Made by a program: the position numbers and the translations under genes. From a virus (lineage: Duplodnaviria > Caudoviricetes): a stretch of 41,527 bases of DNA. How positions within the stretch are numbered: position 1 is the first letter of the stretch; every line of letters starts with the position of its first letter. The DNA lies in the IMG/VR virus record IMGVR_UViG_3300033067_001876, positions 1-41,527 of that record, one strand, 5' to 3'. Under the pieces are notes generated by a model. The model saw nothing but the letters and a program-made list of their open reading frames with translations, ran no database searches and was not told the DNA's origin. This document shows positions 2,779 to 41,171 of the stretch, piece by piece.

Positions 2779-2781
2779 CGG

Positions 2782-2805: not shown

Positions 2806-2835
2806 CGGTGTTATTTCAGACACCGGAGAGGTGGT

Positions 2836-7310: not shown

Positions 7311-7313
7311 CGC

Positions 7314-7982
7314 TCAGCCCTCGAGGTGCGCGCGCCACGTGGCGCAGAACTTTTCGGGGTTGAAGAACTTCGTCGCTTCCAGCTTCGAGACGTGCGAGTC
7401 GAAGGCGTGTTTGATCGGCTCGATGTCCTGCGACGTCAGATTCGGGAGCTTCTTCCGGAGGATCCCGTCAAAGTGCCACGAAGAGGCGGTGAACTTCTCG
7501 CACCACGCGAGTTTGAAAGCCTCGATCACCGCCGCGATGTCTTCAGCCGTAACAGTCGCAGCAGCCTTGCGCTCTCTCCATCGTCGAGAGCGCTCGCTTG
7601 CGGTGTGGTCCTTCTGCCGGTACTTGTCGAAGTTCAGGATGATGAACCCGCCGTCGATTGGAACCATTCGCCGACCCTCAAAGTCCTTGCTCCGGCTGTC
7701 GGTGTCAGGACTCGCAAGAAGTTTGATCGCTTGCTCTCCAGACGCCGGGTCCACCATCGCACGGTAAACGATCCCAAGACTGGCGGCCCGTACGAGCCCG
7801 TACCATCCAGGCGGGATGACGAAGTCGGACTCGTTCAACGTTCCGGGGATGTACGTCTTCGTAGGCGTTCTCAGCTCGACCGGGGACGCCATAAGGAGCG
7901 CGGTGATGAATACTGTTCGAGCGTCCTTCTCGAACCAAATCGTCGAGTCCAGCATCCCGCAGTCGAGTTTCACGTAAGCCAT
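7314..7982 (-). CDS. Phage replication initiator / replisome organizer-like protein
   Basis: YVKLDCGMLDSTIW...SPDTDSRSKDFEGRR...GGFIILNFDKYR...ERSRRWRERK, typical of the N-terminal domain of phage Rep proteins. Confidence 0.7.
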   Translation of the reverse strand: MAYVKLDCGMLDSTIWFEKDARTVFITALLMASPVELRTPTKTYIPGTLNESDFVIPPGWYGLVRAASLGIVYRAMVDPASGEQAIKLLASPDTDSRSKDFEGRRMVPIDGGFIILNFDKYRQKDHTASERSRRWRERKAAATVTAEDIAAVIEAFKLAWCEKFTASSWHFDGILRKKLPNLTSQDIEPIKHAFDSHVSKLEATKFFNPEKFCATWRAHLEG

Positions 7983-8225: not shown

Positions 8226-9119
8226 ATGACATTGGACGTGAACGGGTTTGGCACGACGCCTATGGCGACGTCCGTACCTGAACCTCTACCGACGCAACCC
8301 GTGGCCGCGCCAGCCGCCATGGCGCCTATCGCACCGCCCCAGGACAACCCTGGCGCTTCAGTGCAACCCGAACCGACCGCACCTCCTACCACTGCCGCTC
8401 AGCCTCGGATCGAGGCCTTCGGACGAACCTTCGAGAACGCTCAACAGCTCGAGGCCTACACCCGACACGTCATCCGATCCGCAGAGGGCCGCATCAGGGC
8501 AGAAGCAGCGTCACAAGGGACCCAAGCACCGCAGCCAGCCGTAAATCAGCCCCCCGCGCCACCCCAGGCGCCGCCCGAGCCGCAAGGTGCGTACGACGTG
8601 GAAACGTTCGTGCTCATCAAGACTCGATTCGGCGAGGAAGCCGCGGAGGACTACCGCTCGAAAGCTATCGCAGAGCATCACCAGAAGACCACCCAGGCGC
8701 TTCTCGACAAAACGCTCGCCCCCATGCGGGAGCGGGAAGAGGTCGAGTCGTTCCAGGCGGAAATCACGTCGATGTTCCAGAGGGCCGAAAGCGCAGCTGG
8801 AAGCAACGGGCAGCCGTTGATTCCGGAGCTGAAGAGCCAGCCGGCCGCGGAAGCGATCGTGAAAATCTGGCAGGAGTTCCCCATCGAGTATGCCCGCACC
8901 CCGGTCTCGATCTTGCGCGCAGCGCAGATCTACCGTGGTCAGGTCATGCAGATGGTCGCTCCGACGCCGCCGCCCCCGCAGAACGCCCCTTCTGGACAGA
9001 GCCTCGACTCAAGCGTCGGGCCGCCCAGCGGTTTCGTCCCCGGGATTCAGCCGCCGTCAAACATTCCACGCCCGTCCACGGTTCATCCCGTCACGGGTGA
9101 GAGGTACACAATCCAATGA
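8226..9119 (+). CDS. Putative capsid scaffolding protein
   Basis: Pro/Ala/Gln-rich ends, helical core, directly upstream of and coupled to the MCP. Confidence 0.7.
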   Translation: MTLDVNGFGTTPMATSVPEPLPTQPVAAPAAMAPIAPPQDNPGASVQPEPTAPPTTAAQPRIEAFGRTFENAQQLEAYTRHVIRSAEGRIRAEAASQGTQAPQPAVNQPPAPPQAPPEPQGAYDVETFVLIKTRFGEEAAEDYRSKAIAEHHQKTTQALLDKTLAPMREREEVESFQAEITSMFQRAESAAGSNGQPLIPELKSQPAAEAIVKIWQEFPIEYARTPVSILRAAQIYRGQVMQMVAPTPPPPQNAPSGQSLDSSVGPPSGFVPGIQPPSNIPRPSTVHPVTGERYTIQ

Positions 9120-10321
9120 CCTTCGTTGCTCCTCCCCTCACGCGTCCCACTGCGATCACCCAGTCCGTTGACCCTCAGGGCAACAACTCGACCGCGACAG
9201 TTCCACAAGTCGACCCGCGCCTTCACTGGCTCGAGCCCGACGTGGCGCCGTTCATCTCGCTTCTGGAGAACAAGATCCAGAAGTCCAAGCCGGTTCGGAA
9301 CTACCGGCACACGTGGTTCAAGCAGTATCCCTATCCGAATCAGGTGACGTCGCTCGGTGCCGTCGGCGCCGGGACGTCCACGGTCACCCTGGCGGTGGGC
9401 GACGGCGCTTACCTCGCCATCGACTACTCGCTGATGAACATTCGGACGGGTGAGATCGTTCGCGTCACCACGACTCCGACGAACGATTCCGTCGCCACCC
9501 GGCGCAGCATCGGCTCGAACGGTCCTTTCGACATCTTCGACGGCGACAAGTGGCTCATCCTGGGCCCGACGAACGAGGACGGCGCCGGCATGGGCCCGAT
9601 CCGCACCGTCGGAAACTCGGAGGACTACAACTTCACCGAGATCACCCGTCACCCGTTCGGTCTGACGGGACGCATGCTCACCACGGAGCGCTGGACCGGC
9701 CCCGCGATGGAAGAGGAGCAGCGGAAGGCGTGGCACGAGCACGCGAAGTCGCTCGAGCGCAAGGCGTTCTTCGGTCTGCGTGATCAGGATCTCGGAACGC
9801 TCGGCAACGGGCAGAACGCGATGGGCGGTCTCCGCGACTTCATCCGTCGCAACGTGTGGGATCTCGCCGGAGCGAACATCACGAAGACGTCCTTCGACGA
9901 CTTTGCGGTGGAGGTCGGCAAGTACGGCCGCGGTGGCTACCTGCACGGGACCGCGACGAAGGGCATCTTCTGCGGTCGCCAGATGGCGCAGGTCTTCATC
10001 GACTGGGCCGAGGGCAAGGTGCTGTATCGCCCGACGGATCGCGTGGTCGGCATGGAGGTGGACGTCATCCAGAACGCCTCATGCAAGTTCAACATCTTCA
10101 AATGTGGGACTTTCGACACGATTCCCGGCATGGAGAATCGCGCGTTCATCGTCGACATCAACGAGGTCTCGAGCGCTCCGTACGAGGGCCGGTCGACTTC
10201 GATGCTGAGCGACCGTCAGGCGAACGACATCGACGGGAAGAAGTTCGAATTCTTCACCGACCAGACGCTCGAAGTTCCGATGGAAGAGGCTCACGGGATG
10301 ATCCTCAACGCCGGGTTCTAA
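9116..10321 (+). CDS. Major capsid protein (DUF5309/SU10-like)
   Basis: YNFTEITRHPFGLTG, HAKSLERKAFFG, MGGLRDFI, TLEVPMEEAHG; 401 aa followed by a terminator. Confidence 0.85.
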   Translation: MTFVAPPLTRPTAITQSVDPQGNNSTATVPQVDPRLHWLEPDVAPFISLLENKIQKSKPVRNYRHTWFKQYPYPNQVTSLGAVGAGTSTVTLAVGDGAYLAIDYSLMNIRTGEIVRVTTTPTNDSVATRRSIGSNGPFDIFDGDKWLILGPTNEDGAGMGPIRTVGNSEDYNFTEITRHPFGLTGRMLTTERWTGPAMEEEQRKAWHEHAKSLERKAFFGLRDQDLGTLGNGQNAMGGLRDFIRRNVWDLAGANITKTSFDDFAVEVGKYGRGGYLHGTATKGIFCGRQMAQVFIDWAEGKVLYRPTDRVVGMEVDVIQNASCKFNIFKCGTFDTIPGMENRAFIVDINEVSSAPYEGRSTSMLSDRQANDIDGKKFEFFTDQTLEVPMEEAHGMILNAGF

Positions 10322-26594: not shown

Positions 26595-27727
26595 AGCGTT
26601 TCCTTCGGTGGCTCTTCAGGAAGATCCTCGGGGAGCCTCACTTCCTCGTTCTCGTGGGCGCCGTCGTGCTCTTCGGAGCGCGAGCTGACGCCCAGGGATG
26701 CTTCGGGCCCGGGTGCGGTGGCAGTTCGAGCGGTGGAGGCGTCACCCCGGCGACTCTCAACGACGCGACGTATTGTCCCGACGTTGGCGCATCCGACGCC
26801 TACGTGTGTTCGATGGTGAGCGCCCCATCGTCCTACGCGGCGGGGATGCTGGTGACGTTGTCCGCGAACACGGCGAACACCGGGACAGCCTCGGTGAACG
26901 TGAACTCGCTCGGGGTGAAGACCATCGTGCGCAGCGACGGAACCACGCTCCAGACGGGGGACATCACGGCGGGGATGGTCATACTCCTCAAGTACGACGG
27001 AACCAACTTTCGGGCTGAGTTTCGTGGGGGCTCCATCATTTCTCCGACCGGTGGGGTGACGATCCGCTCGGATACCTACGCCTCGGGGTCTGATGTGGGG
27101 CTCACTGTCCAAGGCTCTCTCACTGGAAACATTCAGGAATGGAAAAATGCTGCTAACACTCGACTTTCGTACATAACAGCGGACGGCACATTGCGTCTTC
27201 CAGTTGGTACATTCGGAGGGAATAGAGCCATCGAATTTGGATCTTCTAACTATTCGATGTATCAGATTTCAACTGGAATCTACATGGTCACCGGGACACA
27301 ATATACGTTTTTCGATGGTGGAGTCGGGATTCCATTGGGCTCAACGATTGGATTTGCTTCTACAACTGACGGATCAGTTAAAGACACGTATCTTCGGCGC
27401 TACTCTGCTGGCGTCTTTGCCGCTGGAGCATCAGCCACAGACATACGAGGCCTAATAGGTGGCGGCGCTGCGGTGGCTTCTGCGACAGCTCTCCCGCTGC
27501 CAACTGGGTCCGTGTTTCATGTCACCGGGACCACCAACATAACGTCGATCACCGCGACCAATCTGGCGAACGGATTGATTATTGCGCTGATTTTCGACGA
27601 CGTTTTGACGTTCACCGATGGGAACAATCTCAAACTGAACGGAAACTTCGTTACCGCGACCGGGGCCACGATCTATTTGGCCTACGACGGTACGAATTTC
27701 TACGAACTTGGCCGCAGCACCAACTAA
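26591..27727 (+). CDS. Tail-fibre-like protein with N-terminal signal peptide
   Basis: FLVLVGAVVLFGARADA|Q; fibre modules ANTANTGTASVNVNSLGVKTI...LKYDGTNF and VFHVTGTTNITSI...YDGTNFYELGRS. Confidence 0.8.
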   Translation: MKRFLRWLFRKILGEPHFLVLVGAVVLFGARADAQGCFGPGCGGSSSGGGVTPATLNDATYCPDVGASDAYVCSMVSAPSSYAAGMLVTLSANTANTGTASVNVNSLGVKTIVRSDGTTLQTGDITAGMVILLKYDGTNFRAEFRGGSIISPTGGVTIRSDTYASGSDVGLTVQGSLTGNIQEWKNAANTRLSYITADGTLRLPVGTFGGNRAIEFGSSNYSMYQISTGIYMVTGTQYTFFDGGVGIPLGSTIGFASTTDGSVKDTYLRRYSAGVFAAGASATDIRGLIGGGAAVASATALPLPTGSVFHVTGTTNITSITATNLANGLIIALIFDDVLTFTDGNNLKLNGNFVTATGATIYLAYDGTNFYELGRSTN

Positions 27728-27736
27728 GGAGCCAAC

Positions 27737-27841
27737 ATGAATAAACTCATCCCTGCCATCACCTATTTGTTGATGGGTGGCGTCATCGCTGCCTCGATCA
27801 CTATGACGGTTACGATCAACGGAACCGTCACTCCAAGCTAA
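27737..27841 (+). CDS. 34-aa hydrophobic peptide
   Basis: TAAGGAG RBS; MNKLIPAITYLLMGGVIAASITMTVTINGTVTPS. Confidence 0.55.
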   Translation: MNKLIPAITYLLMGGVIAASITMTVTINGTVTPS

Positions 27842-27853
27842 GGAACCCCAAAC

Positions 27854-28273
27854 ATGAAGACCATCCCGAAACTGCTCGTCCCAGTTCTGCTCATGCTCGC
27901 CGTCGTCGGCATCGTGACGACCGGCCCAAAGGCCACGGCACAGACCGCTGCCGAAGTCCTCGCGGCTTTCAACGCTGGGGTTTGCGATGCCTTCTCCCTC
28001 GCGGATGGCTGCACTGACGCGCAGGTCCTCACCGCCTACTGCACCACTCAGCCTCAGCCCTGCGTGGACAATCGCACCGCAGAGCAGAAGATCTACTCCA
28101 CGGTCAACGCCTTCGCCAATGCTGTCCTGCTCCCGCCGCGACAGAAGGCCATCTTCGCCCAGCGTCGGGACATCATCCTCGCTCGGCTCATGCGGATCGT
28201 CACGACCGATCCGGTCCGGTGCGCGGCGGTATTGAGCGCGGCGGGCATCGCGGACCAGACGGTGTGCAAGTAG
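27854..28273 (+). CDS. Exported Cys-rich protein
   Basis: AAGGA RBS; MKTIPKLLVPVLLMLAVVGIVTTGPKATA|Q; 6 Cys. Confidence 0.7.
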   Translation: MKTIPKLLVPVLLMLAVVGIVTTGPKATAQTAAEVLAAFNAGVCDAFSLADGCTDAQVLTAYCTTQPQPCVDNRTAEQKIYSTVNAFANAVLLPPRQKAIFAQRRDIILARLMRIVTTDPVRCAAVLSAAGIADQTVCK

Positions 28274-28277
28274 GGCA

Positions 28278-28721
28278 ATGACCGTTCACTCCATCGAAAT
28301 ACTCGCCACGGGTGTAGCTTCTGGCCTGGGTGCCTCTGTGGCGAGCGCGTGGCTGATGGGTGTGGACATAGCCTCGGCCGCAGGCAGCATCACGCCTGAG
28401 ATGCTGGCTCAGAGCGCAGAGCCGGTCTCGAAGTGGCTTGTCTGGGTCGGGATCGGCGCCGTTGTGTGGGTGGGGAAGCGGATGAGCGACGATGTGAAGA
28501 AGTTCGTCGCTCTGCCTTCCAGGGAGGACATTTTCTCTGCCATCGAAGAGGCAGTGAAGAAGGGCGCGGCGCATAACGAAGCGGTTCTGACGGAGGTGCG
28601 CGGGATGCGAGAGGATTTTCAGGGCAACATCTATGGGATCGAGAAGCGTGTGCGTGTTCTCGAGACGGACGTCGTGGCGATCAAGATGAGGCACGAGACC
28701 GAGGATAGGCTCGCGTCCTGA
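28278..28721 (+). CDS. Membrane protein with C-terminal coiled coil (holin or spanin candidate)
   Basis: Two hydrophobic segments, then IEKRVRVLETDV. Confidence 0.6.
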   Translation: MTVHSIEILATGVASGLGASVASAWLMGVDIASAAGSITPEMLAQSAEPVSKWLVWVGIGAVVWVGKRMSDDVKKFVALPSREDIFSAIEEAVKKGAAHNEAVLTEVRGMREDFQGNIYGIEKRVRVLETDVVAIKMRHETEDRLAS

Positions 28722-28726
28722 CCCCG

Positions 28727-29713
28727 ATGTCGTCTTGCTGGCCGGATTTCTTCGATGACGGGATAGAGGCATACCGCACAACGCGCGGGCATTGCCTCGT
28801 AACGCTGCGGTGGTGGTGTCAGTCGCATCGGCGGAACCGAAAGTGGTTCGATACGATGCGGGCGAAGTTTGAGAGCGACTTCGAGTTCGAGCAGGAGTTT
28901 GGAATCAACTGGGCGGCGCGGAGTGGGGACGCCTACTTCCCTGAGTTCGTTCTGCGGGGCCCGAAGTTCTACTCGATCAGGAGCCGTGGGATCTACCCAG
29001 GCCTTCCCATCTACCGCGGGTGGGATTTCGGGACATCGAGGCCGGCTGTGGTGTGGGCCCAGATCGACGAGACGGGGCGGGTGTGGATCCTGCGGGAGAT
29101 CGCTCCGGCGAACATCGACATCCACCAATTCCGAGATCTCGTGAAGTACCTCAGCGGTCAGCTTGACCTGGAGCATCTCGAGCGGGCGTCGATGACGAGG
29201 GCGCTTCAGATCATCAACGAGATCAACAAGCCGGACTCTGGGTATCCGGAGGCGCCGTGGTTTGAAGGGTCGTTGAATGAGTGGGTAGACCACGGGCTTC
29301 CTGAGGCGGTTGCGCCGTCGAGGATCCAGACGACGACGGAGAGAACGGACTCGGACGTGCTGGCGTCGGGTGGGATCTACCTGCAGACCGCCTACGTGCA
29401 CCTCGAGACGCGCGAGCAGGTGATGCGGGCTCTTCTTCGGCGCCGGCCGGACGGGTGGCCTGGGATCATCTGGGACCCTGCCTGCAAGCACTCGTTGAGG
29501 ATGATGAACGGCGGCCTGACTCGGGCGAAGGATGCCAAGGGCCGGGTGATCGGAAGCAAGTACAACAAGCCTGGGATCGTCGACGACCTCTACGACGCGC
29601 ATTCGGCGTTTCTGACGCAGGAGATCGACCCCGCCGACTTTGCGGATGACGGTACTATAAGGCGTACTCGTGAGATCCAAGAGATAGACTCCTACCTGCT
29701 GGAAGTGGCATAG
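28727..29713 (+). CDS. terL: Terminase large subunit, C-terminal (lid plus RNase H-like nuclease) part
   Basis: FEQEFGINW, YFPEF, RGWDFG, WAQIDETGRVWILREI, IIWDPAC, DDLYDA; no Walker motifs. Confidence 0.8.
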   Translation: MSSCWPDFFDDGIEAYRTTRGHCLVTLRWWCQSHRRNRKWFDTMRAKFESDFEFEQEFGINWAARSGDAYFPEFVLRGPKFYSIRSRGIYPGLPIYRGWDFGTSRPAVVWAQIDETGRVWILREIAPANIDIHQFRDLVKYLSGQLDLEHLERASMTRALQIINEINKPDSGYPEAPWFEGSLNEWVDHGLPEAVAPSRIQTTTERTDSDVLASGGIYLQTAYVHLETREQVMRALLRRRPDGWPGIIWDPACKHSLRMMNGGLTRAKDAKGRVIGSKYNKPGIVDDLYDAHSAFLTQEIDPADFADDGTIRRTREIQEIDSYLLEVA

Positions 29714-29724
29714 AAAGGCTCGAC

Positions 29725-29979
29725 ATGGCGAAGAAGGTTTCAAAGGCGAAGGCGAAGGCGGCTATGGCTGCCGTCCCGGGCGCCCCTGCGACGCGGCGGG
29801 CTGTGGTGGGGGCGAAGGGCCTGCCGGTTCTCTCGGACGTCTGGGCCGCCAAATGCGCGATCTCTGGCATGAGCCTGGGAGAGCTGGACGAGTTCGAGGC
29901 GACGCGGCGGGACATGCTTCGCCACGGACAGGGGATCTTGGCTGCGGTGGCGGCGCGGCGGGCTGAGCTGTCCGAATGA
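29725..29979 (+). CDS. Hypothetical protein
   Basis: 84 aa; ATGA overlap with the portal. Confidence 0.6.
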   Translation: MAKKVSKAKAKAAMAAVPGAPATRRAVVGAKGLPVLSDVWAAKCAISGMSLGELDEFEATRRDMLRHGQGILAAVAARRAELSE

Positions 29980-32063
29980 GCTTGACGGTCCCGACCGGGC
30001 GGCAGATTCCTGCGCCGTCCAAGTACCCTGAGCCGGCGCTGGGCGGGTATGGCGCGCAGGATCACGGGCGGATGGTTGACTGGCTTTGTCAGGTGAACCG
30101 TCAGCTGGAGATCAACTGCACTGGGCTCTACCGGGAGATGGTGGCGCACGCCGGGATCTACCTCGGTCAGCGGGTGGACCCTCGAAAGCCGCATGAGAAG
30201 TGGAGATCGAACCTTCATATCCCCTACGGCTCGAGCGCGATCGACACGGCGGTGGCGGCTGAGCTGGACATCCTCTTGTCCGCGAACCCCTGGGTTCAGG
30301 TGGAAGGCGTGGGCGAGGAGGACAAGAAGAACGCGCGGTCGATCGAGAACGCGATCCAGCACACCCTCACGGTGAACAATTGGCCGGTCGAGGCGAAGAT
30401 CGGCCTTCAGAACAAGCACATCTACGGAACACAGCTCTGGAAGGTCTCGAACCGGCCGCGGTACTCGAAGGTCTACATCGAGTATTCGAAGGCGGACTTG
30501 GACGACTGGCAGAAGCGGGTTCAGGACCTCTCGATGTTGAGCGGGATCCCGTGTCCGGATCCAGACGCCCCTGAGGACTTCCCTGGGCAGTCTCGGATGC
30601 TCTTCGAGGCGTGGCGCGACATCATGCTCAAGAGCGGCAAGGGGCGCGTCCCTGACAAGCCGCTGAGCGGGTGGAAGAACGTCATGGTGCGGAACGCGCC
30701 GGACATCTCCAACCAGAGCCTCTTCGACATCCGGCTCGACCCTCGGATCTACGACATTCAGGACCAGCCGATCATCATGCAACGGTCGATCAAGACCGCG
30801 CGCTGGGTGCTCGATCGGTGCAAGACGGACGCCCAAAATGGCATCTTCCACGCTGGGCAGGTGGACCGGGCGCTATCGGGCTCGCCGGCCGAAGCGATGG
30901 GGAACTGGGATGCGGACGTCTCGTCGATGCTGGGCCTGAAGGGGTGGCGCTCGAGCCTCTGGAACTACCTCGACGATGGCGACCGGCCGGTCGAACTGTT
31001 CGAGGTGTGGCGCCGTCACGATCGGGTTCCATACCTCGTGATGATGAACCGGACGTGCCTCATCAACCTCGAGTTCGAACACCTGCCATATCGCCACGGG
31101 CTTTATCCGTACATCCCCGTTCGGAACCAGCCGCAGGCGGGCAGCTTCTTCGGTCTATCCGACCTGAAGCAGACGGCGTCGATGTACGAGCAGATGGATC
31201 GGATGTACAACCTCCACATGGACGCGCTCCTGCTGAGCGTTATTCCGGTGTGGCTGGCGACGAAGGGGGCTGGACTGCCGGCCGACGTCGGGACGATGTT
31301 CCAGCCTGGGCGGATCTGGACGACGAACATGATCGACGCGATCCGTCCGCTCGTAAAGGATCACCCCGACCCGGATATGTGGCGGGTGGTGGCGGACCTG
31401 AAGGCGAACATCGACGAGACCCAGTCGACGACTCAGCCTGTCCGCGGTGGCGCCGTCACGTTGAACCGGGTGAGCGCGACCCAGAGCGAGCGAGCGTTCT
31501 CGCAGTCGCTCCTGAGGAACAAGACGGCGGCGATCGTGACCGAGACCGAGCTGCGCCCGATGGTGCACCAGATTCTCTTCCTGCTTCGGGACTACGTCTC
31601 GTCGGACGATCGGGTGAACCTGGGCGGCCGGGATGCCGGCGTGGACGCCTTGAAGTCGGTGCCGCTCGACAAGCTCATCCTGGCGCTCGATCAGGACTTC
31701 AACTTCCGCGGCGCCACGCAGGCGGTGAACCGTCAGGAGCGGATGGCGTTCTTTAAGGACTTCTTCGCGACGGCTCAGGGCGCCGGCCTGCTGATGCCTC
31801 AGGAGGCGCGCGAGCTGCTGTCTATGTGGTGGCGTGAGAGCGGTGTCCCTGGGGGCGGTGGAGTCATCACGGACCCGGGCACGGTGGCGATCACGAACCA
31901 GATGAAGATGGAGCAGGCTCGCCAACAGGCGGAGGCTGTGGCCGCGGCAGCTCAGACGGTCCCGGTTCCGGACGATCGGCGCGACACGTCGGATCCCGGG
32001 ATGATTGACCCCGGTTCTGCTGGCGACATGGCGCAGGTGGGCACGACGCAACAGCCGTTCTGA
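29976..32063 (+). CDS. Portal protein (P22/SU10-like)
   Basis: WRSNLHIP, IYGTQLWKV, PYRHGLYPY, SFFGLS, PGRIW, SATQ; 695 aa with C-terminal coiled coil. Confidence 0.85.
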   Translation: MSLTVPTGRQIPAPSKYPEPALGGYGAQDHGRMVDWLCQVNRQLEINCTGLYREMVAHAGIYLGQRVDPRKPHEKWRSNLHIPYGSSAIDTAVAAELDILLSANPWVQVEGVGEEDKKNARSIENAIQHTLTVNNWPVEAKIGLQNKHIYGTQLWKVSNRPRYSKVYIEYSKADLDDWQKRVQDLSMLSGIPCPDPDAPEDFPGQSRMLFEAWRDIMLKSGKGRVPDKPLSGWKNVMVRNAPDISNQSLFDIRLDPRIYDIQDQPIIMQRSIKTARWVLDRCKTDAQNGIFHAGQVDRALSGSPAEAMGNWDADVSSMLGLKGWRSSLWNYLDDGDRPVELFEVWRRHDRVPYLVMMNRTCLINLEFEHLPYRHGLYPYIPVRNQPQAGSFFGLSDLKQTASMYEQMDRMYNLHMDALLLSVIPVWLATKGAGLPADVGTMFQPGRIWTTNMIDAIRPLVKDHPDPDMWRVVADLKANIDETQSTTQPVRGGAVTLNRVSATQSERAFSQSLLRNKTAAIVTETELRPMVHQILFLLRDYVSSDDRVNLGGRDAGVDALKSVPLDKLILALDQDFNFRGATQAVNRQERMAFFKDFFATAQGAGLLMPQEARELLSMWWRESGVPGGGGVITDPGTVAITNQMKMEQARQQAEAVAAAAQTVPVPDDRRDTSDPGMIDPGSAGDMAQVGTTQQPF

Positions 32064-32162
32064 TAGGATTCGCTCCGACGCAAGGCTCGCATGGTGGCGC
32101 GGGAGATCCGCGAACCTCAGTCAAATTGGGTGAGCATGAAACACGGGCCTCGCGTCACTTCG

Positions 32163-32171
32163 TGTTAGCCT
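32163..32171 (+). promoter_or_regulatory. Extended -10 promoter, leaderless
   Basis: TGTTAGCCT, then 7 nt to ATG 32179. Confidence 0.45.
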
Positions 32172-32178
32172 CTCGCCC

Positions 32179-32505
32179 ATGAAGAAACCCGATCCGCCGG
32201 TCTTCGAAAAGACGACCGTCGACGACATCCTGGCGATCATCAAGCGCAACTATGACGAGCTTCGGGATGCGAACCTCCTGCAGGACGAATCGAAGCCCGG
32301 CGCGAAGCACATCGAGTGGTTCCGTGGCGCCGCACAAGTCCTCCTAAAGATCTCGTCCGAGATCGAATTCGAGCAACAGTCTCGGCTCGAGGCGCGCAAG
32401 GAGACCGCGGAGGAAGCCATCGAGAAGAGCCTCGGCGTCCTCGAACAGTCGCTCCCGGTGAACTGGAACATGGCGCCACCTCCTGACCGGGACGCGGAGC
32501 TGTGA
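32179..32505 (+). CDS. Hypothetical helical protein after the portal
   Basis: 108 aa; IEWFRGAAQVL. Confidence 0.7.
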   Translation: MKKPDPPVFEKTTVDDILAIIKRNYDELRDANLLQDESKPGAKHIEWFRGAAQVLLKISSEIEFEQQSRLEARKETAEEAIEKSLGVLEQSLPVNWNMAPPPDRDAEL

Positions 32506-32508
32506 GCG

Positions 32509-33027
32509 GTGATTCACTGCCTGGGGCCGGGATGCGGTCAGAAGATCGTCGAGACGGACAGGGCGCTCAGAACGCACATGTGCGAGAGCTGCCTGGAACT
32601 GGCGAGGGCGGAGCTGAAGGGGATCGGGAGATCGAGGTCAGTTTCGTTATTCCCGCCCCTGTACTACGGGGACCTGAGGGGGATCGTCCAAAGAAGCGGC
32701 GCCCCTGTGAAGTTGCTAGCTCCGTGGCTGGGCATTCAGCCGGTGACGCTCCGGATGGCAATGAAGGTGCACAAGGGGAGGAAACGTCTCCCTGGGTGGC
32801 TGGAGCGCGTCGTCTACAGGCCTTTATGGAGCAAGCAAGGAAGCGAATGGCTGGGCATCCTTCCAACACGCGTGTTCCTCGTCGCCAGCAGCGTCCGACG
32901 CCGGAGGTTTCACGTGCGATCCTTGCAGGTCGACCTCTCTATGTATCCCGAGGACTTCTTATATCAACATCCTGGGCGCGCTGGGCTGCGCGTTATGCGA
33001 AAGAGCAAAACGCACACCCCAAAATGA
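32509..33027 (+). CDS. Zn-finger / HTH-like basic protein
   Basis: CLGPGC...MCESC; LAPWLGIQPVTLR. Confidence 0.55.
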   Translation: MIHCLGPGCGQKIVETDRALRTHMCESCLELARAELKGIGRSRSVSLFPPLYYGDLRGIVQRSGAPVKLLAPWLGIQPVTLRMAMKVHKGRKRLPGWLERVVYRPLWSKQGSEWLGILPTRVFLVASSVRRRRFHVRSLQVDLSMYPEDFLYQHPGRAGLRVMRKSKTHTPK

Positions 33028-33329
33028 CGGCGACGGCCGCGGTGATGGTCTTCGCAGACATGGAGCTCGAGGCCGGCCAAACGCTCGACTGGGCGTGTGC
33101 GATGGCGGCCGAAGAGCAGCTCCCGCTGGGTACTTGGATCGCTCAGGTTGTGCAACAATACCGCGATGACTTCGTCGCCCAAGAAGCTCGAAACCGAACC
33201 CTCGAAATACGTCGACGTCGATTTGCCCGCATCCAGGCTGCAGGAATGGCGCTCAACCCTCGTTCGCCGCTGGTCGCGGAGCCCGATGCAGTTCCTCACC
33301 GCGATCGACCCCACAACGATCAGGACTGA
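33024..33329 (+). CDS. Hypothetical protein (terminase small subunit candidate)
   Basis: ATGA coupling at 33024; overlaps the start of the TerL ATPase gene. Confidence 0.45.
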   Translation: MTATAAVMVFADMELEAGQTLDWACAMAAEEQLPLGTWIAQVVQQYRDDFVAQEARNRTLEIRRRRFARIQAAGMALNPRSPLVAEPDAVPHRDRPHNDQD

Positions 33330-34101
33330 CGGGCGGCCGTCGCACGTCTGGGTCACGACGGACGAGCGAGAGAAGAAGGGGATCTTCAACGAGTCGGCCG
33401 CGGGAGGGACGGAGAAGCCGTTCCCACAGTGGGCTTACCTCTCGATGCTCTTCGGCCTGTACCAGAGGGAGGACGTGGTAGGGATCGAAAAGAGCCGGCA
33501 GGTGTTCGCCACGACGGCGACGCTGGCCTATGCATTCTGGGTGGCGGCGTTCCACGACAACCAGAAGATCTTGCTGTCGAAGGCGACCTTGCCGGAGGCT
33601 GAGCAGCTCCTCGAGGAAAAGATCCGGATTCCGTGGGGGCGGATGCCGCCGTGGCTGAAGGACCGATTCGAGATCAAGGACAAGCCGGCGAACCTGATTC
33701 GGTTCCGGTCGACCACGACCCCGCGTCACAACTCGTCAAAGAGCGTGATCCAAGCCGTCGCGGAGAATGCGGCGTTGCGAGGCCTGCGCGGAGGCACGGC
33801 GTCTCTGGTCATCATCGACGAGGCAGCGCTCCAGGGCAATCTCAGCGCAATGCTGAGGGCGGCCGCTCCAATGGCTGCACGCATAATCTGCCTCACGTCG
33901 GCTGATGGCGGCGAGGCAGGGGGCGAGGCGTTCGTCGCCTACTTCGATTGTGCGCCGGAGCGAAAGAAACACCTCAAGCCAATTGTTATCCCGAAGGACG
34001 ATCTTCGCGAGCTTCCCGAAGCCGCGGTATTTGACGAAGAAGCGTCTGGGGATCAGTTTGTTCCTCTCGAGGAAGGTGATGGTTCGGTGGGAATGCTGTA
34101 G
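33166..34101 (+). CDS. terL: Terminase large subunit, N-terminal ATPase part
   Basis: KPFP adenine-binding region, EKSRQVFATT Walker A variant, MPPWLK, LRGGTASLVIIDEAA Walker B, ICLTSA coupling motif; ends without a nuclease domain. Confidence 0.85.
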   Translation: MTSSPKKLETEPSKYVDVDLPASRLQEWRSTLVRRWSRSPMQFLTAIDPTTIRTDGRPSHVWVTTDEREKKGIFNESAAGGTEKPFPQWAYLSMLFGLYQREDVVGIEKSRQVFATTATLAYAFWVAAFHDNQKILLSKATLPEAEQLLEEKIRIPWGRMPPWLKDRFEIKDKPANLIRFRSTTTPRHNSSKSVIQAVAENAALRGLRGGTASLVIIDEAALQGNLSAMLRAAAPMAARIICLTSADGGEAGGEAFVAYFDCAPERKKHLKPIVIPKDDLRELPEAAVFDEEASGDQFVPLEEGDGSVGML

Positions 34102-34260
34102 CAGCTCCTCGAAGTCGACGTAGGCGTCGTCGCAGGCCGCGGAGACGATCCGGCCGGCGTGAAGGTGCAGGACCGGAGTCGTGTCGCATCGGCGCTCGCA
34201 GAAGCGACAGGCGCCGTTGTGGTCGACTGGGATGAAGTGCAGGTGACAAATGCGGATCAT
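33736..34260 (-). CDS. Cys/His-rich protein with run-on C-terminus antisense to terL
   Basis: AAGGAG RBS; MIRICHLH...CRFCERRC. Confidence 0.45.
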   Translation of the reverse strand: MIRICHLHFIPVDHNGACRFCERRCDTTPVLHLHAGRIVSAACDDAYVDFEELLQHSHRTITFLERNKLIPRRFFVKYRGFGKLAKIVLRDNNWLEVFLSLRRTIEVGDERLAPCLAAISRREADYACSHWSGRPQHCAEIALERCLVDDDQRRRASAQASQRRILRDGLDHAL

Positions 34261-34277
34261 CGGGGCGTTGGGCTCCT

Positions 34278-34514
34278 TCAGAAAAGTTCGGATTGTCCGG
34301 CCTTGACGGCATCTCGAACGCTCTTCGATGTCTTGAGGCCTCGCTGGCGTCGGACCTCGTCGCACCAAATCTTGTACGGGTGGTATCGGCGCTCTCCGAA
34401 TGGGTAGGCGTCGCGGAGGGCCGCGCGGATCTGAGGCTCCTTAAGGTCCTTCGTGGCGGCCAGGACCTCGGAGATGACCTTCGCGGCGTGGGCCCGCCAG
34501 TGGCTCCCCGTCAC
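34278..34514 (-). CDS. Small phage hypothetical protein
   Basis: GTGA coupling; AYPFGERRYHPYKIWCDEV. Confidence 0.7.
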   Translation of the reverse strand: MTGSHWRAHAAKVISEVLAATKDLKEPQIRAALRDAYPFGERRYHPYKIWCDEVRRQRGLKTSKSVRDAVKAGQSELF

Positions 34515-34963
34515 AGGTCTGATCCAGGGTCGAAGGCGTCGGGATCGTCGGACGGCGCCTCGGACTTCGTGATGGCGGGGTGTGGGACGAGCGGACACGT
34601 CCCTGAGAAGATCAGGTCTCCGAACGTGACCGTAACCTCCACCGCGGCGACTCCCTTTCGCTGGGCGGTCACGGACGCAGCCGGGCGGGCATTCTGAGGG
34701 GCAGCCTTGGGACGCTCCGGCCGGCCTTCCTTGGCGGGGCAGGTGTCGAAGTGGTTCGTCCACCGCTCCGAACCGTCGTCACGGGTGCCTCCGAAGGTCG
34801 CCTTGACCTCCTTTCCGTCCTGCTGCAGGATCCATTTGGCGTCCTCGCCGTGCGTCGGCTCAGGGTCGAACATCATGTTCGAGGGTGACGAGGCGCCCTT
34901 CTTCGTGAACTTCGCCCAGACGACCTCTTCGTGACAGTCGCGGCATTCGGCGGTCTTAAACAT
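34511..34963 (-). CDS. Zn-binding phage protein
   Basis: CRDCHEEVVWA...NHFDTCP. Confidence 0.7.
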   Translation of the reverse strand: MFKTAECRDCHEEVVWAKFTKKGASSPSNMMFDPEPTHGEDAKWILQQDGKEVKATFGGTRDDGSERWTNHFDTCPAKEGRPERPKAAPQNARPAASVTAQRKGVAAVEVTVTFGDLIFSGTCPLVPHPAITKSEAPSDDPDAFDPGSDL

Positions 34964-35270
34964 TGGGTTCGGCTCCTTCGATGGCGGCCTTCAGGAGCGC
35001 GAGCCCTTGTTTGGCCGGGATGGGGTTGGGTGGGGAAAGAAGTTTCATCGGCTGGGGTGTGGGCGGTACGGGCTCGAGAAGATCGGAGATTGCCGGCCAG
35101 AAGGAATGCGTTCGGACCCATTCGGCGGCACGATCCCTGACGGTCTCGTATTCGAGGCGGGAGCGGATCAGCTCGTAGGAGAGGAGCCCCTGAAAGTCGA
35201 CGTCTCGACGCTGGGTCGGATAGGACTTGAGGAGCTGCGCGATGATGGCGGCCGCCTCATTCTGGGTCAT
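34956..35270 (-). CDS. Helicase loader/inhibitor-like protein (G39P-like)
   Basis: MTQNEAAAIIAQLLKSYP...WVRTHSFWPAISDL. Confidence 0.6.
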   Translation of the reverse strand: MTQNEAAAIIAQLLKSYPTQRRDVDFQGLLSYELIRSRLEYETVRDRAAEWVRTHSFWPAISDLLEPVPPTPQPMKLLSPPNPIPAKQGLALLKAAIEGAEPNV

Positions 35271-35282
35271 GGTCTCGCTCCT

Positions 35283-35588
35283 TCACAACCCGTCGCACCA
35301 TCGGTAAGCGGTCGTGATCGAGATGCCGTACTTCTCAGCCGCGGTCTTGCGGCTCATCCCCTCCGCCACCGCTCGACGCACCTGGGGTCGGATAGCGTCC
35401 TTCGGCGTCGGGAAGGACTGGCAGAGCTTGTAAACTTTCGAGACCGACAACGTAAGCCCGTGCTGGTCCCTGAGCACGTCTCGAGCCTCCTGGTAGGTGC
35501 CTCCGGAGGCGCGGACCTTCATCAACGACGCCATGATCGGCGCCGGCAGCTCGATCCGGTTTTTGTACTTCAGTCCCTTGGGTCTCAT
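35283..35588 (-). CDS. Double helix-turn-helix DNA-binding protein
   Basis: TYQEARDVL...LSVSKVYK and GMSRKTAAEKYGISITTAYRW. Confidence 0.75.
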   Translation of the reverse strand: MRPKGLKYKNRIELPAPIMASLMKVRASGGTYQEARDVLRDQHGLTLSVSKVYKLCQSFPTPKDAIRPQVRRAVAEGMSRKTAAEKYGISITTAYRWCDGL

Positions 35589-36433
35589 AGTTCTCCTTCG
35601 ATCTGGAATTCTGCCATCTGCTCGGCGATGACGGCTCGCGGCGATGGAACGGAAAAAACGGCGGAGAAGTCCCTGGCGTTCTCGGTCCTATTGCCCGCGT
35701 CTTGACGACCTCGAGGGGGTATTCGGATGTCCATCTGCTCGGCGATGACGGCTCGCGGCGATGGAACGGAAAAAACGGCGGAGAAGTCCCTGGCGTTCTG
35801 GTCGGCGACGTTGCCGGTCTTCTCGGGCTCGAGGTAGACGCGCCACGTGGACGCGAACTTTTGAAGGTTCAGGTACATCGGATCCTTGAGGCGCCGGAGA
35901 TACTCGGCGAAGGCGGCCTGGAACCCGTGAACGTCTCGGTCGGTCGCAAGGACGGACAGAACCATGTGCCGAAGGACGCCTGGGGTCGGCTCCGATTTGA
36001 AAACGTCTCTCCAGATCCGTTCAAGAGCGCATGTGATCGGGGTGGCGTAGACCGTCGCGTCTGGCAGTGTGGCTGTCGTCGGTCCTATTGCCCGCGTCTT
36101 GACGACCTCGAGGGGGTATTCGGATGTGTCGAACGCAGGAGCCGCGGCCGGCTTGGTCCCGTGTATCGGGCATCCTGGGGGGCATGGGATCTCTGCGAGC
36201 TGGTATGTCCTCGTGGGCCCGCGCTTGGTGAGCGCCTTCGAGTCGACCAGGGACGAGATCGTCTTTCGGACGGTGGCGGCGTTGCATCGGGCGAGCCACG
36301 CGATCAGATCGACGTTCGGGCACGCGACCCCACCGGCGTCGGCGCCCTCGGCGATGAAGGCGAGGATCATGGTCTCGTGAGCGTTGAGGTTGGTCGCGTG
36401 GCTCTCGACCATCGCTCTCCAGTGGGCGCTCAC
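35585..36433 (-). CDS. Replication-initiator-like protein with N-terminal winged HTH
   Basis: GTG 36433; ETMILAFIAEGADAGGVACPNVDLIAWLARCNAATVRKTISSLVD; followed by a loader-like gene. Confidence 0.7.
   Translation of the reverse strand: MSAHWRAMVESHATNLNAHETMILAFIAEGADAGGVACPNVDLIAWLARCNAATVRKTISSLVDSKALTKRGPTRTYQLAEIPCPPGCPIHGTKPAAAPAFDTSEYPLEVVKTRAIGPTTATLPDATVYATPITCALERIWRDVFKSEPTPGVLRHMVLSVLATDRDVHGFQAAFAEYLRRLKDPMYLNLQKFASTWRVYLEPEKTGNVADQNARDFSAVFSVPSPRAVIAEQMDIRIPPRGRQDAGNRTENARDFSAVFSVPSPRAVIAEQMAEFQIEGEL
35614..35799. repeat. 69-bp perfect direct repeat (35614-35682, 35731-35799) enclosing a 49-bp copy of 36079-36127
   Basis: Direct sequence comparison. Confidence 0.95.
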
Positions 36434-36984
36434 AGGTCGTCCTCGGCGGGGGCGAAGTCTGGAGCGGCGACGTACTTGAACGTCGTGACGACCGTCCCTT
36501 GGATCCCGGTGGAAGGGCAACACTCAAGCCGGTACGTGTTCCTCGACCTCCCGGGCCCGTCCTCCTTCCCGACGACCAGCACGCCCACCTCGCGCAGCCT
36601 CGAGACCTTCGCCTTGGCGTGTCTCAGGTCGCACCTCCAAAGCGCCGCGAGCCCGGGGAACGCGAACGCCGAAACGTGCGTGTCGTCGTGGGCGTGGATC
36701 AGGAGCGAACAAAAATGCATCTCCTGCGCGGTGAGCTTCTCCTGCCATCTCTCTACGAGGGCGGAGTAACAGTTCTGGTTCATCATGGTCGGTTTCGGTT
36801 TCTCTGGTTCGGGTAGTTCGGCGGCCTTGGCTTCCATCTCCCAGGCTTGATCTGATATCTCGATGGCGGTCAGGTCGTGGATGCTGTTCACCCCAAGGGC
36901 CTTCTTCATGGCGGCGGCAAGCTCAGCCTTCCCGCAGCCTGTCTTTCGTGCGAGTTCGTCGAGGGACCTCCAGTAGTGCCTCAG
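36430..36984 (-). CDS. NinB-like N-terminal segment fused to a winged-HTH domain (start uncertain)
   Basis: LRHYWRSLDELARKTG...MKKALGVNSIHDL; FPGLAALWRC...VSRLREVGVL...RSRNTYRL. Confidence 0.55.
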   Translation of the reverse strand: MRHYWRSLDELARKTGCGKAELAAAMKKALGVNSIHDLTAIEISDQAWEMEAKAAELPEPEKPKPTMMNQNCYSALVERWQEKLTAQEMHFCSLLIHAHDDTHVSAFAFPGLAALWRCDLRHAKAKVSRLREVGVLVVGKEDGPGRSRNTYRLECCPSTGIQGTVVTTFKYVAAPDFAPAEDDL

Positions 36985-38015: not shown

Positions 38016-38753
38016 TCATGAGGCGGACTCCGCGAAGAGAGGGCCACCCGAAAGGCGCAACCGAGCAGCTTCAGCGAAGGCCTCGTCTCTCTCGACCCCA
38101 ATGAAGGTGTGACCGAGGCGCATGGCCGCGACTCCGGTTGACCCAGAGCCGCAAAATGGATCCAGGACGACACCGCCGCTCTTACCCTGCATGGCGGTCC
38201 TCACAGCGCGCTCCATGAGTTCGACGGGCTTCTCGGCGGGGTGATCGGTTACTCCTGTCGAGCCCCCGCCCCACGGGACATCCCAGACATCAGGTTCGCC
38301 GGTAGGCTTTGGTCTGAAGTCATTCATCTGGATGACGGCAAAGGTCTCGTAACTTCTGCGCAGGATCCCACCCATTCCGATCCGCTTCTTGTTCCAGACT
38401 CCGACTACAGGGGCGCGACGAATGCCACGTCGGGCGATGACGTCGTCTAACGTCAAGAGCCCTCGCCAGTCAAGGGAAAGCCACCACAGTCCGTCCGGCT
38501 TCGTCACGCGGATCCACTCGTCGCAATGCTCTACGAGCCACGCTCGATAGAACTGGGTCTCCGCCGTCTGCCGGATCGTGCGCGAGGCAGTGATCGCCGA
38601 ATCGCCTGTTATGGCATATGGAGGATCCGTCACAATGGCGTCGACCGACTCCGACGGCATCCCCCGGAGGACTTCGAGCGCGTCTCCTTGGATGATCGCT
38701 GCCGCCGGCACTGCTTCGATGGCCTCGGCCACGGGGATAGGTTGGTCGGTCAT
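38016..38753 (-). CDS. DNA N4-cytosine/N6-adenine methyltransferase (beta class)
   Basis: TDPPY, HPAEKPVEL, VLDPFCGSGSTG. Confidence 0.92.
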   Translation of the reverse strand: MTDQPIPVAEAIEAVPAAAIIQGDALEVLRGMPSESVDAIVTDPPYAITGDSAITASRTIRQTAETQFYRAWLVEHCDEWIRVTKPDGLWWLSLDWRGLLTLDDVIARRGIRRAPVVGVWNKKRIGMGGILRRSYETFAVIQMNDFRPKPTGEPDVWDVPWGGGSTGVTDHPAEKPVELMERAVRTAMQGKSGGVVLDPFCGSGSTGVAAMRLGHTFIGVERDEAFAEAARLRLSGGPLFAESAS

Positions 38754-38799: not shown

Positions 38800-39927
38800 T
38801 CACTGTTTCGAAACCTCGAGCTTCACCTTGTCGAGCGTCCATCCCATTTCGTGGCAGTGGACCTCGAGCTGGGAGATCGCCTCGGCCTTGGCGTCACCCG
38901 ACATCGCGCGGATGATCTCCATGCCCAGCTGCGCGCGCTTGAGATCCTTCCATTCGGAGATCGCCATCGGGCGGATGTCGAAGTGACCTTCAGGGGCGCC
39001 GGCACGCTTGCCGATCTCCCACTGCATCTTGATCCGGTGCTCGCGGAAGATCTTCTTCGCGGCGGAGGCGAGCGGCTCGGGGAAGGCGAAGATCGCAGGA
39101 AGCGCGGCCATCGCTTTCTCGGGCGTCGTCCACGTGGCGATATCGGCGCGGACGTCGTCGAAGTGGTCGACGTTGGCCGGATCTCCGGACGTCTCGCGCG
39201 GGACAGCGGGGGCGGCCACGGGGACGGGCTTCGGCGCTTCTGCGGGCGCCGTCTTGGGCTCGGCCTTGGGCGCCGAGGCCTTCGGTGCGGCGGGGGCCTT
39301 GGGCTGCTCCTGGGGCACCGTCGTGGTCGTGGTCTCCTTCTCGGGCCCGTCGGCCTGGAGCATCTCCTCAGTCGTGTAGAGGCCGGAGAGTTCAGCCGGA
39401 CAGGCCTTGCGGAGCGCCAGAGCTTCGGCGCACTTCGCGATCATTACGTCTCCCATCGTCTCCCACATCTTGGTAAGGGCGCCGCCCGACTTCTTCTGAG
39501 CGTAGGCGTCGAAACGAGCAACGCCCCAGATGGGTTCGCTCCAGCCTTCGCGAAACACTCCGACCTTGGCGGCGACGAGTTCGCCCATGGGCTTCGTCCA
39601 GACATCGACCCATGCGCCATCCTTCCCGCACCACCACGGCCCGTTCTGCCCGCGGTACTGACCGGAGCGCTCGGCCTGAAGGCGGAGCCCGTCGATGCTG
39701 ACCTGGGTCATCGCCTTCTCGATCGACTGACCGTCGACGAACTGGCGGCGCTTCAGCGTGTAGATCTGGCGCGACCACGGATCGAGCTGCGTCCGCTCGC
39801 ACTGACGGAAGAAGGCCTCCAGCTCATCGGCGGTGTGGGTCTGGGCGTGGAGTCGCTTGTAACGCTGCTTGTCCTCCTCGCTGAACGTGAGCGCGGTCGT
39901 TGGAAGGTTTGGTGTGGCCTGCGTCAT
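38800..39927 (-). CDS. bet: Phage recombination protein Bet (single-strand annealing)
   Basis: LDPWSRQIY, QVSIDGLRLQAERSGQY, MIAKCAEALALRKACP, GLYTTEEM. Confidence 0.9.
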   Translation of the reverse strand: MTQATPNLPTTALTFSEEDKQRYKRLHAQTHTADELEAFFRQCERTQLDPWSRQIYTLKRRQFVDGQSIEKAMTQVSIDGLRLQAERSGQYRGQNGPWWCGKDGAWVDVWTKPMGELVAAKVGVFREGWSEPIWGVARFDAYAQKKSGGALTKMWETMGDVMIAKCAEALALRKACPAELSGLYTTEEMLQADGPEKETTTTTVPQEQPKAPAAPKASAPKAEPKTAPAEAPKPVPVAAPAVPRETSGDPANVDHFDDVRADIATWTTPEKAMAALPAIFAFPEPLASAAKKIFREHRIKMQWEIGKRAGAPEGHFDIRPMAISEWKDLKRAQLGMEIIRAMSGDAKAEAISQLEVHCHEMGWTLDKVKLEVSKQ

Positions 39928-41171
39928 AGCATTGACTCCTGTTCGGGTTCCTGGTCTTCAAAGAAACGGGTGGTGGTTTTGTCCCAGTTCAAGCGGACGG
40001 TGTTGGTGTCACCCTCGCGTTGTTTCGCGACGATGATCTCGGCTCGGCCCTTGTTCGCGTCGGTCGGGTTGTGGGCTTCCTCCCGGTAGATCAGGATGAC
40101 GACGTCGGCGTCTTGTTCGATGGCGCCCGACTCACGAAGGTCGGTGAGCTGCGGTCGTTTGTCCTTGCGGGTGTCGGCCGGCCTAGAGAGCTGTGACAGG
40201 GCGATGATCGGGACCTGAAGGTCGACGGCGAGCTGCTTGAGCCCCCTGGAGATCGAGGCGACCGCCTCCTGACGGTTGGGCCCTTTCCCTTCCATGAGCT
40301 GAAGGTAGTCGACGACTATCAGCTCAAGGTTCGGGATGGTGCGCGCGGCGCGTCGTATCCCCCCGACGGTGTTCGCGGAGGTGTTGATCCACATAGGGAG
40401 CCCGCAAACGTCGGCGGCGGCCTTGGCGAGCGCCTGCCATTGGTGCTCCCTGAGACCGAATTGGATCGCTCTCTGGTTCACCTGCGCGGCGGAGGAGATC
40501 ATTCGGCGGGCGATTTGTTTATGGCTCATCTCGAGGCTGACGATGAGACACCGCGCAAACGAACCTCGCGCCATTTGAACGGCCAGGGCGCTTTTACCCA
40601 TGCCAGGGCGGCCGGCGACGACGATCAGCTCCCCATTGTTGAGGCCGGAGAGAATCGCGTCGAGCTGTCCGAAACCCGTAGGACGGCCGATCATCCCCTT
40701 GGCGCCTGCGAGCTGCTCGAAGCTGTCGAAGGCGGCCTTGGCGGCGGTGTAGATCGGGACGGTGTGATCTCGAGCTCGAACGTCGTTCGATTCGATCGCA
40801 CGAAGCGCGGCGGCGATCTGTTCGTCAGGGTCGGCCTTTTCAGCCGCAATTGTGAGCGCCTCCCGAAGCTGGCGATTCTGTGAAGCCGCGCGAACGAGCT
40901 TCGCCCACGGAGCGACGTTTTCGATGCGCGGTAGACCGTCAACGAGGGCGGCGATCTCCGCGGCGGGGATCCGGCCGCCCAGCTCATGGCGGACCGTGAC
41001 GAGGTCGATCGGCTGCGCTCGCTCGTCAATCGCGTGCATGGCGGCGAAGATCGCGCGGTGTACCGGGTCGGCGAAGTCGTGGGCGGTAAGCGCGGCGGTC
41101 GACATCGCGCGGTTGTCGATCAGGATAGCTCCAAGGATGGTTCGCTCGGCGTCTTTGATGGCGTCGCTCAT
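39924..41171 (-). CDS. dnaB: Replicative DNA helicase
   Basis: AERTILGAIL, GRPGMGKS, VVDYLQLM, LSQLSR, DLRESGAIEQDAD, IVAKQREG. Confidence 0.97.
   Translation of the reverse strand: MSDAIKDAERTILGAILIDNRAMSTAALTAHDFADPVHRAIFAAMHAIDERAQPIDLVTVRHELGGRIPAAEIAALVDGLPRIENVAPWAKLVRAASQNRQLREALTIAAEKADPDEQIAAALRAIESNDVRARDHTVPIYTAAKAAFDSFEQLAGAKGMIGRPTGFGQLDAILSGLNNGELIVVAGRPGMGKSALAVQMARGSFARCLIVSLEMSHKQIARRMISSAAQVNQRAIQFGLREHQWQALAKAAADVCGLPMWINTSANTVGGIRRAARTIPNLELIVVDYLQLMEGKGPNRQEAVASISRGLKQLAVDLQVPIIALSQLSRPADTRKDKRPQLTDLRESGAIEQDADVVILIYREEAHNPTDANKGRAEIIVAKQREGDTNTVRLNWDKTTTRFFEDQEPEQESML

Follow-up and report, generated by a model that had tools for sequence, protein, structure and literature searches.

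Halves of a large terminase encoded as two genes, in reversed order, around the portal gene of an IMG/VR virus

Models of DNA packaging treat the large terminase (TerL) as a single polypeptide: the lid moves with ATP, and a linker passes that movement on to the nuclease (PMC5727402, PMC13595956). In the latter, a 2026 review, TerL consists of two domains with a linker between them, and a term search of its text for "split" found no occurrence. Isolated Arthrobacter phages of cluster AY encode TerL as two consecutive genes (PMC11920828, PMC12820723), and in KellEzio, a cluster AT phage, the genes annotated as ATPase and nuclease are five genes apart (PMC5513430; KU647626). The two-gene and the intron- or intein-split TerLs that we found in print are arranged in N-to-C order. 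Here we describe the reverse arrangement in IMGVR_UViG_3300033067_001876. Our window is the whole of this 41.5-kb virus record (41,527 nt), which is linear and an estimated ~90% complete. In it, the gene for a lid-nuclease chain (C-chain) lies upstream, and the gene for an ATPase chain (N-chain) downstream, of the portal gene:

28727..29713, + strand: TerL C-chain, 328 aa; predicted last ATPase beta-strand at residues 22-27, lid to about residue 65, RNase H-like nuclease at 66-302 with D100, D188 and D290.
33166..34101, + strand: TerL N-chain, 311 aa; ATPase core, K109-x-R111 P-loop, Walker B D218-E219, motif III TSA, K[RH]LKP extension and a low-confidence acidic tail.

Both open reading frames (ORFs), with the motifs that a preliminary description of this DNA had named, were confirmed at these coordinates. 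The C-chain ORF contains FEQEF (residues 54-58), GWDFG (98-102) and DDLYDA (286-291); the ATPase ORF contains KSRQ (109-112), IIDEAA (216-221) and TSA (244-246), plus the acidic tail. The C-chain gene comes first, and the 3,452 nt between it and the ATPase gene are filled by the portal gene and small genes. When each half was checked against profiles, both matched the PHROG family phrog_2 (TerL): the ATPase gene over profile positions 265-419 (E 1.5e-8) and the C-chain gene over 424-588 (E 3e-7), two matches that abut without overlap and bear out the earlier claim of a TerL split in two around the portal. Pfam returned a sub-threshold Terminase_6N match for the ATPase gene (E 0.043) and none for the C-chain. 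The ATPase profile matched T4 gp17 (E 1.3e-18), and the ATPase model aligned to T4 gp17 residues 65-305 (Z 18.9, root-mean-square deviation [rmsd] 3.5, 210 residues). The C-chain model (predicted local distance difference test [pLDDT] 91) aligned to D6E TerL residues 233-417 (Z 18.7, rmsd 2.5, 176 residues) and also to the nuclease domains of P22, SPP1, G20c and T4. Because both profile and fold searches match TerL, the identity of the two halves is settled.

The features that define TerLs of the Terminase_6/T4 gp17 type are present, namely an ASCE ATPase fold with a Walker B DE and motif III, and an RNase H-like nuclease with conserved acidic residues; what differs is that ATPase and nuclease occupy two ORFs with separate stops, in reversed order, rather than one polypeptide. 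The catalytic positions are well conserved. ATPase residues K109, R111, D218 and E219 were found in 37/37 aligned rows, as was T/S at 244-245, and for the C-chain we found D100 in 96/96 rows, D188 in 84/96 and D/E290 in 95/96.

Reversed order occurs in eight loci, which make up four lineages including that of the window, and in each lineage the portal gene lies between the halves. Identity to the window is 80% (nuclease) and 71% (ATPase) for the L003/L085/L086 lineage, 57% and 52% for the L089 lineage, and 58% and 53% for the L088 lineage. The search for related phages with the same split and order, proposed in the preliminary description, thus returned these three further lineages as well as L001, a close strain of the window. 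The four lineages form one clade (Shimodaira-Hasegawa-like approximate likelihood ratio test [SH-aLRT] 100 in a 39-locus concatenated tree; support 1.0 in the tree of each half), within which the halves diverge in step, at 56-80% identity for the nuclease and 49-71% for the ATPase. Comparison of the window with L003 gave ratios of nonsynonymous to synonymous substitution (dN/dS) of 0.20 for the nuclease gene, 0.21 for the ATPase gene and 0.26 for the portal gene, indicating purifying selection, with dS near saturation (0.9-1.4). In all four lineages, no more than 8 nt separate the C-chain start from an upstream stop triplet, in-frame or not, an arrangement that fits coupled translation of the C-chain in its own right. 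The ATPase start at 33166 was preferred over a GTG at 33097 on the basis of homologs and of L001 differences at 33101-33140 that alter an ATPase-frame residue.

The preliminary description had read 28727-29713 as the lid and nuclease half and 33166-34101 as the ATPase half. Lid, nuclease and ATPase core are indeed divided in this way; fold alignments and a complex model indicate, beyond this, that the C-chain also bears the last ATPase strand and that the core on the N-chain is correspondingly incomplete, its last strand and lid being on the other chain. The ATPase chain ends past the helix that follows motif III and aligns to D6E 11-189; residues 190-232 of D6E are covered neither by it nor by the nuclease core (233-417). 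In D6E TerL, the ATPase domain spans residues 1-234, the lid residues include Y213 and R224, and the linker lies at 230-241 (PMC5727402). The C-chain has 65 residues before its nuclease core, modelled as two strands (13-17 and 23-27) followed by two helices, which end in FEQEF. Since D6E 190-232 is left uncovered and these 65 residues are additional, we infer that C-chain residues 1-65 stand in for the end of the ATPase domain. Judging from the models, then, the cut would lie inside the ATPase domain, so that the nuclease chain would carry both the lid and the final strand of the core, and neither gene would encode a free-standing motor. In the fused relative P0038, the ATPase profile covers residues 15-205 and the C-chain profile 231-546, leaving a 25-residue loop between them.

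A model of the two-chain complex, also proposed in the preliminary description, scored 0.86 versus 0.05 for the best control (116 of 157 solved complexes reach the score mark, as do 2 of 215 mismatched pairs), a result that shows fit rather than binding, since split-gene halves tend to pass by likeness to solved structures. Model runs agreed in at least 87% of contacts, with a partner pLDDT of at least 79. The tightest predicted contacts join C-chain residues 22-27 to ATPase residues 104-108 (127-131 in the numbering of the complex model), the strand leading into Walker A. In addition, ATPase residues 266-275, the K[RH]LKP extension, contact the first hairpin of the C-chain. This extension is clade-specific: the ATPase chain continues for 80-94 residues past Walker B in the four reversed lineages, compared to 44-62 in 28 of 30 normal-order splits.

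We consider it likely that the two genes encode two halves of one large terminase, probably as an obligate heterodimer formed after translation that acts as a normal motor subunit on the portal. A two-chain enzyme had been put forward in the preliminary description and is the best reading of the complex model, the eight reversed loci in four lineages and the purifying selection on both genes. The two chains would be translated separately and then assemble 1:1 by strand complementation into a normal, active TerL subunit. The C-chain would supply the missing core beta-strand (22-27) beside the Walker A strand, followed by lid, linker and nuclease, and the lid-linker-nuclease path that couples ATP state to cutting would remain on one chain.

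Several points weigh against this heterodimer. It is deduced from sequence comparison and predicted structures, and the complex score may derive from likeness to solved one-chain TerLs. Gene order is known for only four reversed lineages, the dN/dS values carry the near-saturation of dS noted above, and ~10% of the genome lies outside the record. No TerS match was found by PHROG or Pfam among the genes between the halves. The canonical Walker A with its GKT lysine is also absent, KSRQVFAT standing against SRQLGKT in T4. The P-loop lysine sits at the start of the loop in 37/37 rows, and by sequence comparison the K-x-R form is a trait of the family rather than decay, because 20 of 26 fused relatives carry it too. 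Deviant Walker A motifs have reportedly been described for terminases.

Alternatively, the halves could be separately timed or dosed proteins, with an ATPase ring that translocates and a lid-nuclease chain that docks only to cut. An extended -10-like motif, TGTTAGCCT, located 7 nt before the ATG at 32179, precedes the block that ends in the ATPase gene, although ~0.9 such sites per strand are expected by chance. L003 has a similar motif, TGTTACCAT, 5 nt before the matching ATG. A review reports higher activity for the isolated nuclease of Sf6 than for the complete protein (PMC13595956), which would also suit such an arrangement. However, the limited stretches of L089 and L088 inspected showed no such motif ahead of the corresponding gene, and a sigma-70 -35/-10 scan of 27500-35000 returned 0 promoters. 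The ATPase chain also appears to lack a core strand and the lid; lid residue Y213 lies in the active site of D6E (PMC5727402), and isolated P74-26 nuclease neither binds nor cuts DNA (PMC5389665). Since the lid is predicted to remain on the chain that bears the nuclease, cutting and pumping are unlikely to be controlled separately, and this idea from the preliminary description finds no support once the cut is placed inside the ATPase domain, where the last strand and the lid go with the nuclease. A promoter at 32163 is a plausible candidate from the sequence; a separate promoter could at most time the appearance of the complete enzyme.

It is improbable, in our view, that one half is a relic, or has another job, and that the ~10% of the genome outside the record encodes a complete terminase. 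The incomplete record and the non-canonical Walker A motif leave some room for it. Against it, purifying selection is equal on both halves, the halves diverge in step, and the catalytic residues are kept on chains that cover complementary, non-overlapping parts of TerL. A phrog_2 search of the record gave one match only, to the ATPase half, and no full-length terL; family hidden Markov models (HMMs), run over all stop-to-stop ORFs of at least 50 aa in the window, found one ATPase ORF and one nuclease ORF. The full-length copy elsewhere that would have spoken against the preliminary description was thus not found in the ~90% of the genome that the record covers.

Rejoining of the halves by RNA or protein trans-splicing is less probable still, even though intron-split terL is spliced in Jug phages (PMC12880540) and a split-intein terminase has been reported (PMC2677866). 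Rfam gave no match in the window, or in the gaps of 20 of the 48 normal-order split loci, and neither protein matched an intein family. Rfam intron models can miss divergent introns. The chain ends vary freely, both in ATPase length past Walker B (44-62 vs. 80-94 residues) and in the position of the C-chain start, so no fixed junction fits. As the preliminary description had argued, the reversed gene order means that cis-splicing or frameshifting cannot rejoin the halves, and the absence of intron RNA and intein matches agrees with this.

Assembly artefact as the source of the reversed order can be dismissed: no single contig spans the whole 8 kb, but the distinct strain L001 is colinear with the window over 14,847 aligned nt (99.1% identity, 128 mismatches, no gaps) across both terminase genes, the three diverged lineages have the same order on contigs of 9-47 kb, and overlapping contigs from other studies contain no joint. 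The misassembly check thus came out in favor of the order in the record. The contigs in question, none with a listed joint, come from four runs in four studies, of which run X1 is possibly the source sample. Contigs from metagenomes of wastewater, riverine and freshwater origin cover 28 of 30 bins of the region. Close homologs of both halves have matching half lengths, and some are on contigs of equal length. One contig, from X5, that appeared to join 28899 to 33499 was set aside as a chance match, having ~18 and 21 nt in common with the window within otherwise unrelated sequence.

The split state is family-wide and not confined to the reversed clade. C-chain matches were found at 150 loci, comprising 48 normal-order splits, 11 fused and 8 reversed loci and 83 without an ATPase hit that were left out; judged by eye, most of these 83 are remote one-chain TerLs or pieces of contigs, and the tally of fused forms is consequently too low at long range. 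Removal of exact duplicates left 52 distinct loci (37 normal-order splits, 11 fused, 4 reversed), and 39 loci entered the trees, 13 short-match loci and 15 duplicates having been dropped beforehand. In normal-order splits the ATPase ends within ~10 residues of one point, and the gap to the C-chain gene measures -9 to 1,156 nt, often with small unrelated ORFs in it. The best 150 of 2,170 cluster representatives, which are proteins without genomic context, included 88 stand-alone C-chains that begin with Met, 9 that begin otherwise, 33 fused proteins and 20 fragments. A search for close relatives of greater length, in fused form, found none in the 586-2000 aa range covered, which is weak evidence. 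Two split relatives, L075 (C-chain ORF, 3247-5205) and L017 (ATPase ORF, 2399-3976), are ~300 residues over the usual length, possibly owing to inteins.

On a tree of 133 proteins, the fused state required 27 changes, little different from the mean of 29.4 obtained by shuffling. The 39-locus tree required 5, and a single clade of all fused rows was rejected (approximately unbiased test, p-AU 9e-59). The test did not reject a clade composed of the four nearest fused loci (p-AU 0.22), and repeated fission or fusion is therefore demonstrated for the wider family only; because the tree is unrooted, it does not tell fission from re-fusion. In the history that these data suggest, a break at the loop ahead of the last ATPase strand would already have existed in the family, in many cases with unrelated genes lying between the halves. 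With a start of its own for each half, gene order would have become free, and in one clade the ATPase gene would then have come to lie past the portal, where the late operon ends.

Taken together, these results permit a broader and more tentative reading, which we hold at somewhat less than even odds. Most members of a large uncultured TerL family would be of the two-chain form, and the loop ahead of the final ATPase strand would serve as a hinge opened and closed many times (at least five changes in the 39-locus set; 27 in the 133-protein set). Motor subunits of the reversed clade would assemble by strand complementation whatever the gene order, aided by the K[RH]LKP clasp. No covalent bond would be required where ATPase core and lid meet and force is borne, and packaging could be gated if the ATPase core, expressed from a promoter of its own, were the last part that the phage supplied.

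The interval between the two terminase genes contains the following features:

29725..29979, + strand: 84-aa gene without a family match; weak counterpart in L003.
29976..32063, + strand: portal gene, SU10-like, 695 aa (PF23899, E 2.6e-9); between the TerL halves in 4/4 reversed lineages.
32163..32171, + strand: extended -10-like motif, a candidate leaderless promoter, 7 nt before the ATG at 32179; similar motif in L003.
32179..32505, + strand: 108-aa gene with a W-x-R-G motif, found in 4/4 reversed lineages.
32509..33329, + strand: zinc-finger/helix-turn-helix (HTH)-like gene with a conserved -1 frame switch near 32870-32900; frame A 32509-33027, frame B open to 33329.

HMMs of these genes found matches only in the four reversed lineages. 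In two distant relatives, L005 and L042, TerS-family genes precede the ATPase gene. The genes at 8226 and 32179, two of the 27 listed starts, have TAnnnT 7 nt before the ATG, as in leaderless transcripts. The intergenic sequence after the portal (32064-32178) is similar in L003 and includes an inverted repeat, AACACG/CGTGTT. L089 has what by eye is a tRNA-like sequence after its portal. L004 has a tRNA between its nuclease and portal genes.

The -1 frame switch occurs at the same place in four lineages (window 32509-33329; L003 6339-7081; L089 14384-15189; L088 6662-7527), with ILP..L conserved in frame A and QRP[TL]PE in frame B, which lacks a shared start codon. Ten of the 11 L001 differences at 33014-33140 are synonymous in frame B. 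We saw no conserved slippery heptamer. A look-alike search of the Atlas gave only HTH leads under 0.9 for frame A and nothing for frame B. It is possible that a programmed frameshift yields a zinc-finger/HTH protein with a helical tail, and the product is a weak candidate for TerS.

The + strand block (8226-34101) comprises putative scaffold, capsid and tail genes, the C-chain gene, the portal, two small genes and the ATPase gene, which closes the block where the convergent early genes meet it. A convergent Cys/His-rich ORF on the - strand (33736-34368, read from 34260 downwards, M-I-R-x-C-x-x-H-F) overlaps the 3' end of the ATPase gene in 4/4 lineages; the acidic tail of the ATPase chain may thus be shaped by this overlap. 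As its capsid (9116-10321), adaptor and portal genes are SU10-like, the virus is probably a podovirus. Among 50,697 GenBank phage records there was no close relative (best ATPase match, 29% identity over 46% of the query; three weak records for the nuclease gene). A scan of GTDB genomes found no relative, and L001 was the sole return of a portal scan.

Genes on the - strand encode RecT (38800-39927), DnaB (39924-41171) and a GH108 endolysin. Two DNA methyltransferase genes, one C5 and one N6/N4, lie at 6325-7338 and 38016-38753. An HTH replication-initiator-like gene (35585-36523) contains exact direct repeats of 69 nt (35614-35799) and 49 nt (35682-35730 and 36079-36127), each present as a single copy in L001. 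Short coding duplications link distant early genes, at 7320-7372/35828-35880 and 4574-4602/38726-38754 (repeat families D4, D7 and D13).

A TerL naturally cut between ATPase core and lid would allow the parts to be mixed, mutated, labelled and dosed separately in one motor, and so would permit a direct test of which covalent links force generation and control of cutting need. The reversed order disposes of the usual objection to split genes, namely rejoining by splicing or frameshifting. Furthermore, TerL is a standard marker gene, and this two-chain family gives half-length hits that Pfam misses.

Searches of the literature, covering few subscription journals and no supplements, returned no two-gene TerL in reversed order and no cut before the last ATPase strand, and a term search of the accessible text of PMC12210895, PMC13729910, PMC8601537 and PMC6379665 gave nothing further on split or reversed TerL. 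One-chain TerLs (T4 gp17, D6E and P74-26; PDB 2o0h, 3cpe and 5oe8) share with the window proteins the ATPase and RNase H-like folds, Walker B, motif III and the acidic residues; in contrast, the TerL described here occupies two genes in reversed order, with a predicted cut within the ATPase domain and a P-loop lysine at the loop start instead of in GKT.

Cluster AY phages, represented by BillyTP (gp2/gp3, 359 + 198 aa; PP978841), likewise have the ATPase and nuclease parts on separate genes, but these are consecutive and in normal order, whereas here the C-chain gene comes first, 3,452 nt away. By eye, BillyTP is cut at the interdomain linker, gp3 starting just before the first nuclease motif. 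Only ~10 residues precede its nuclease, versus 65 in the window C-chain, so the cut in the window is not at the linker. Cluster AY belongs to another TerL lineage, which our family HMMs match only faintly. KellEzio gp4/gp10 (260 + 328 aa) resembles the window in having unrelated genes, five in this phage, between the halves and, by eye, in having the lid go with the nuclease. Its genes are in normal order, both upstream of the portal, in contrast to the C-chain-first arrangement around the portal here. KellEzio gp4 also appears by eye to keep the strand after motif III, placing its cut one element later, although the sequence is distant and HMM matches are too weak to align the ends. Intron- and intein-split terL genes (Jug phages, PMC12880540; split-intein terminase, PMC2677866) are similarly in genomic pieces; their pieces are in N-to-C order and are rejoined by splicing, whereas the window has the reversed order and no such element was found in it. 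New, compared to these systems, are the predicted position of the cut within the ATPase fold, the occurrence throughout the family of both split and fused forms at a single loop, and a clade whose reversed gene order rules out rejoining in cis.

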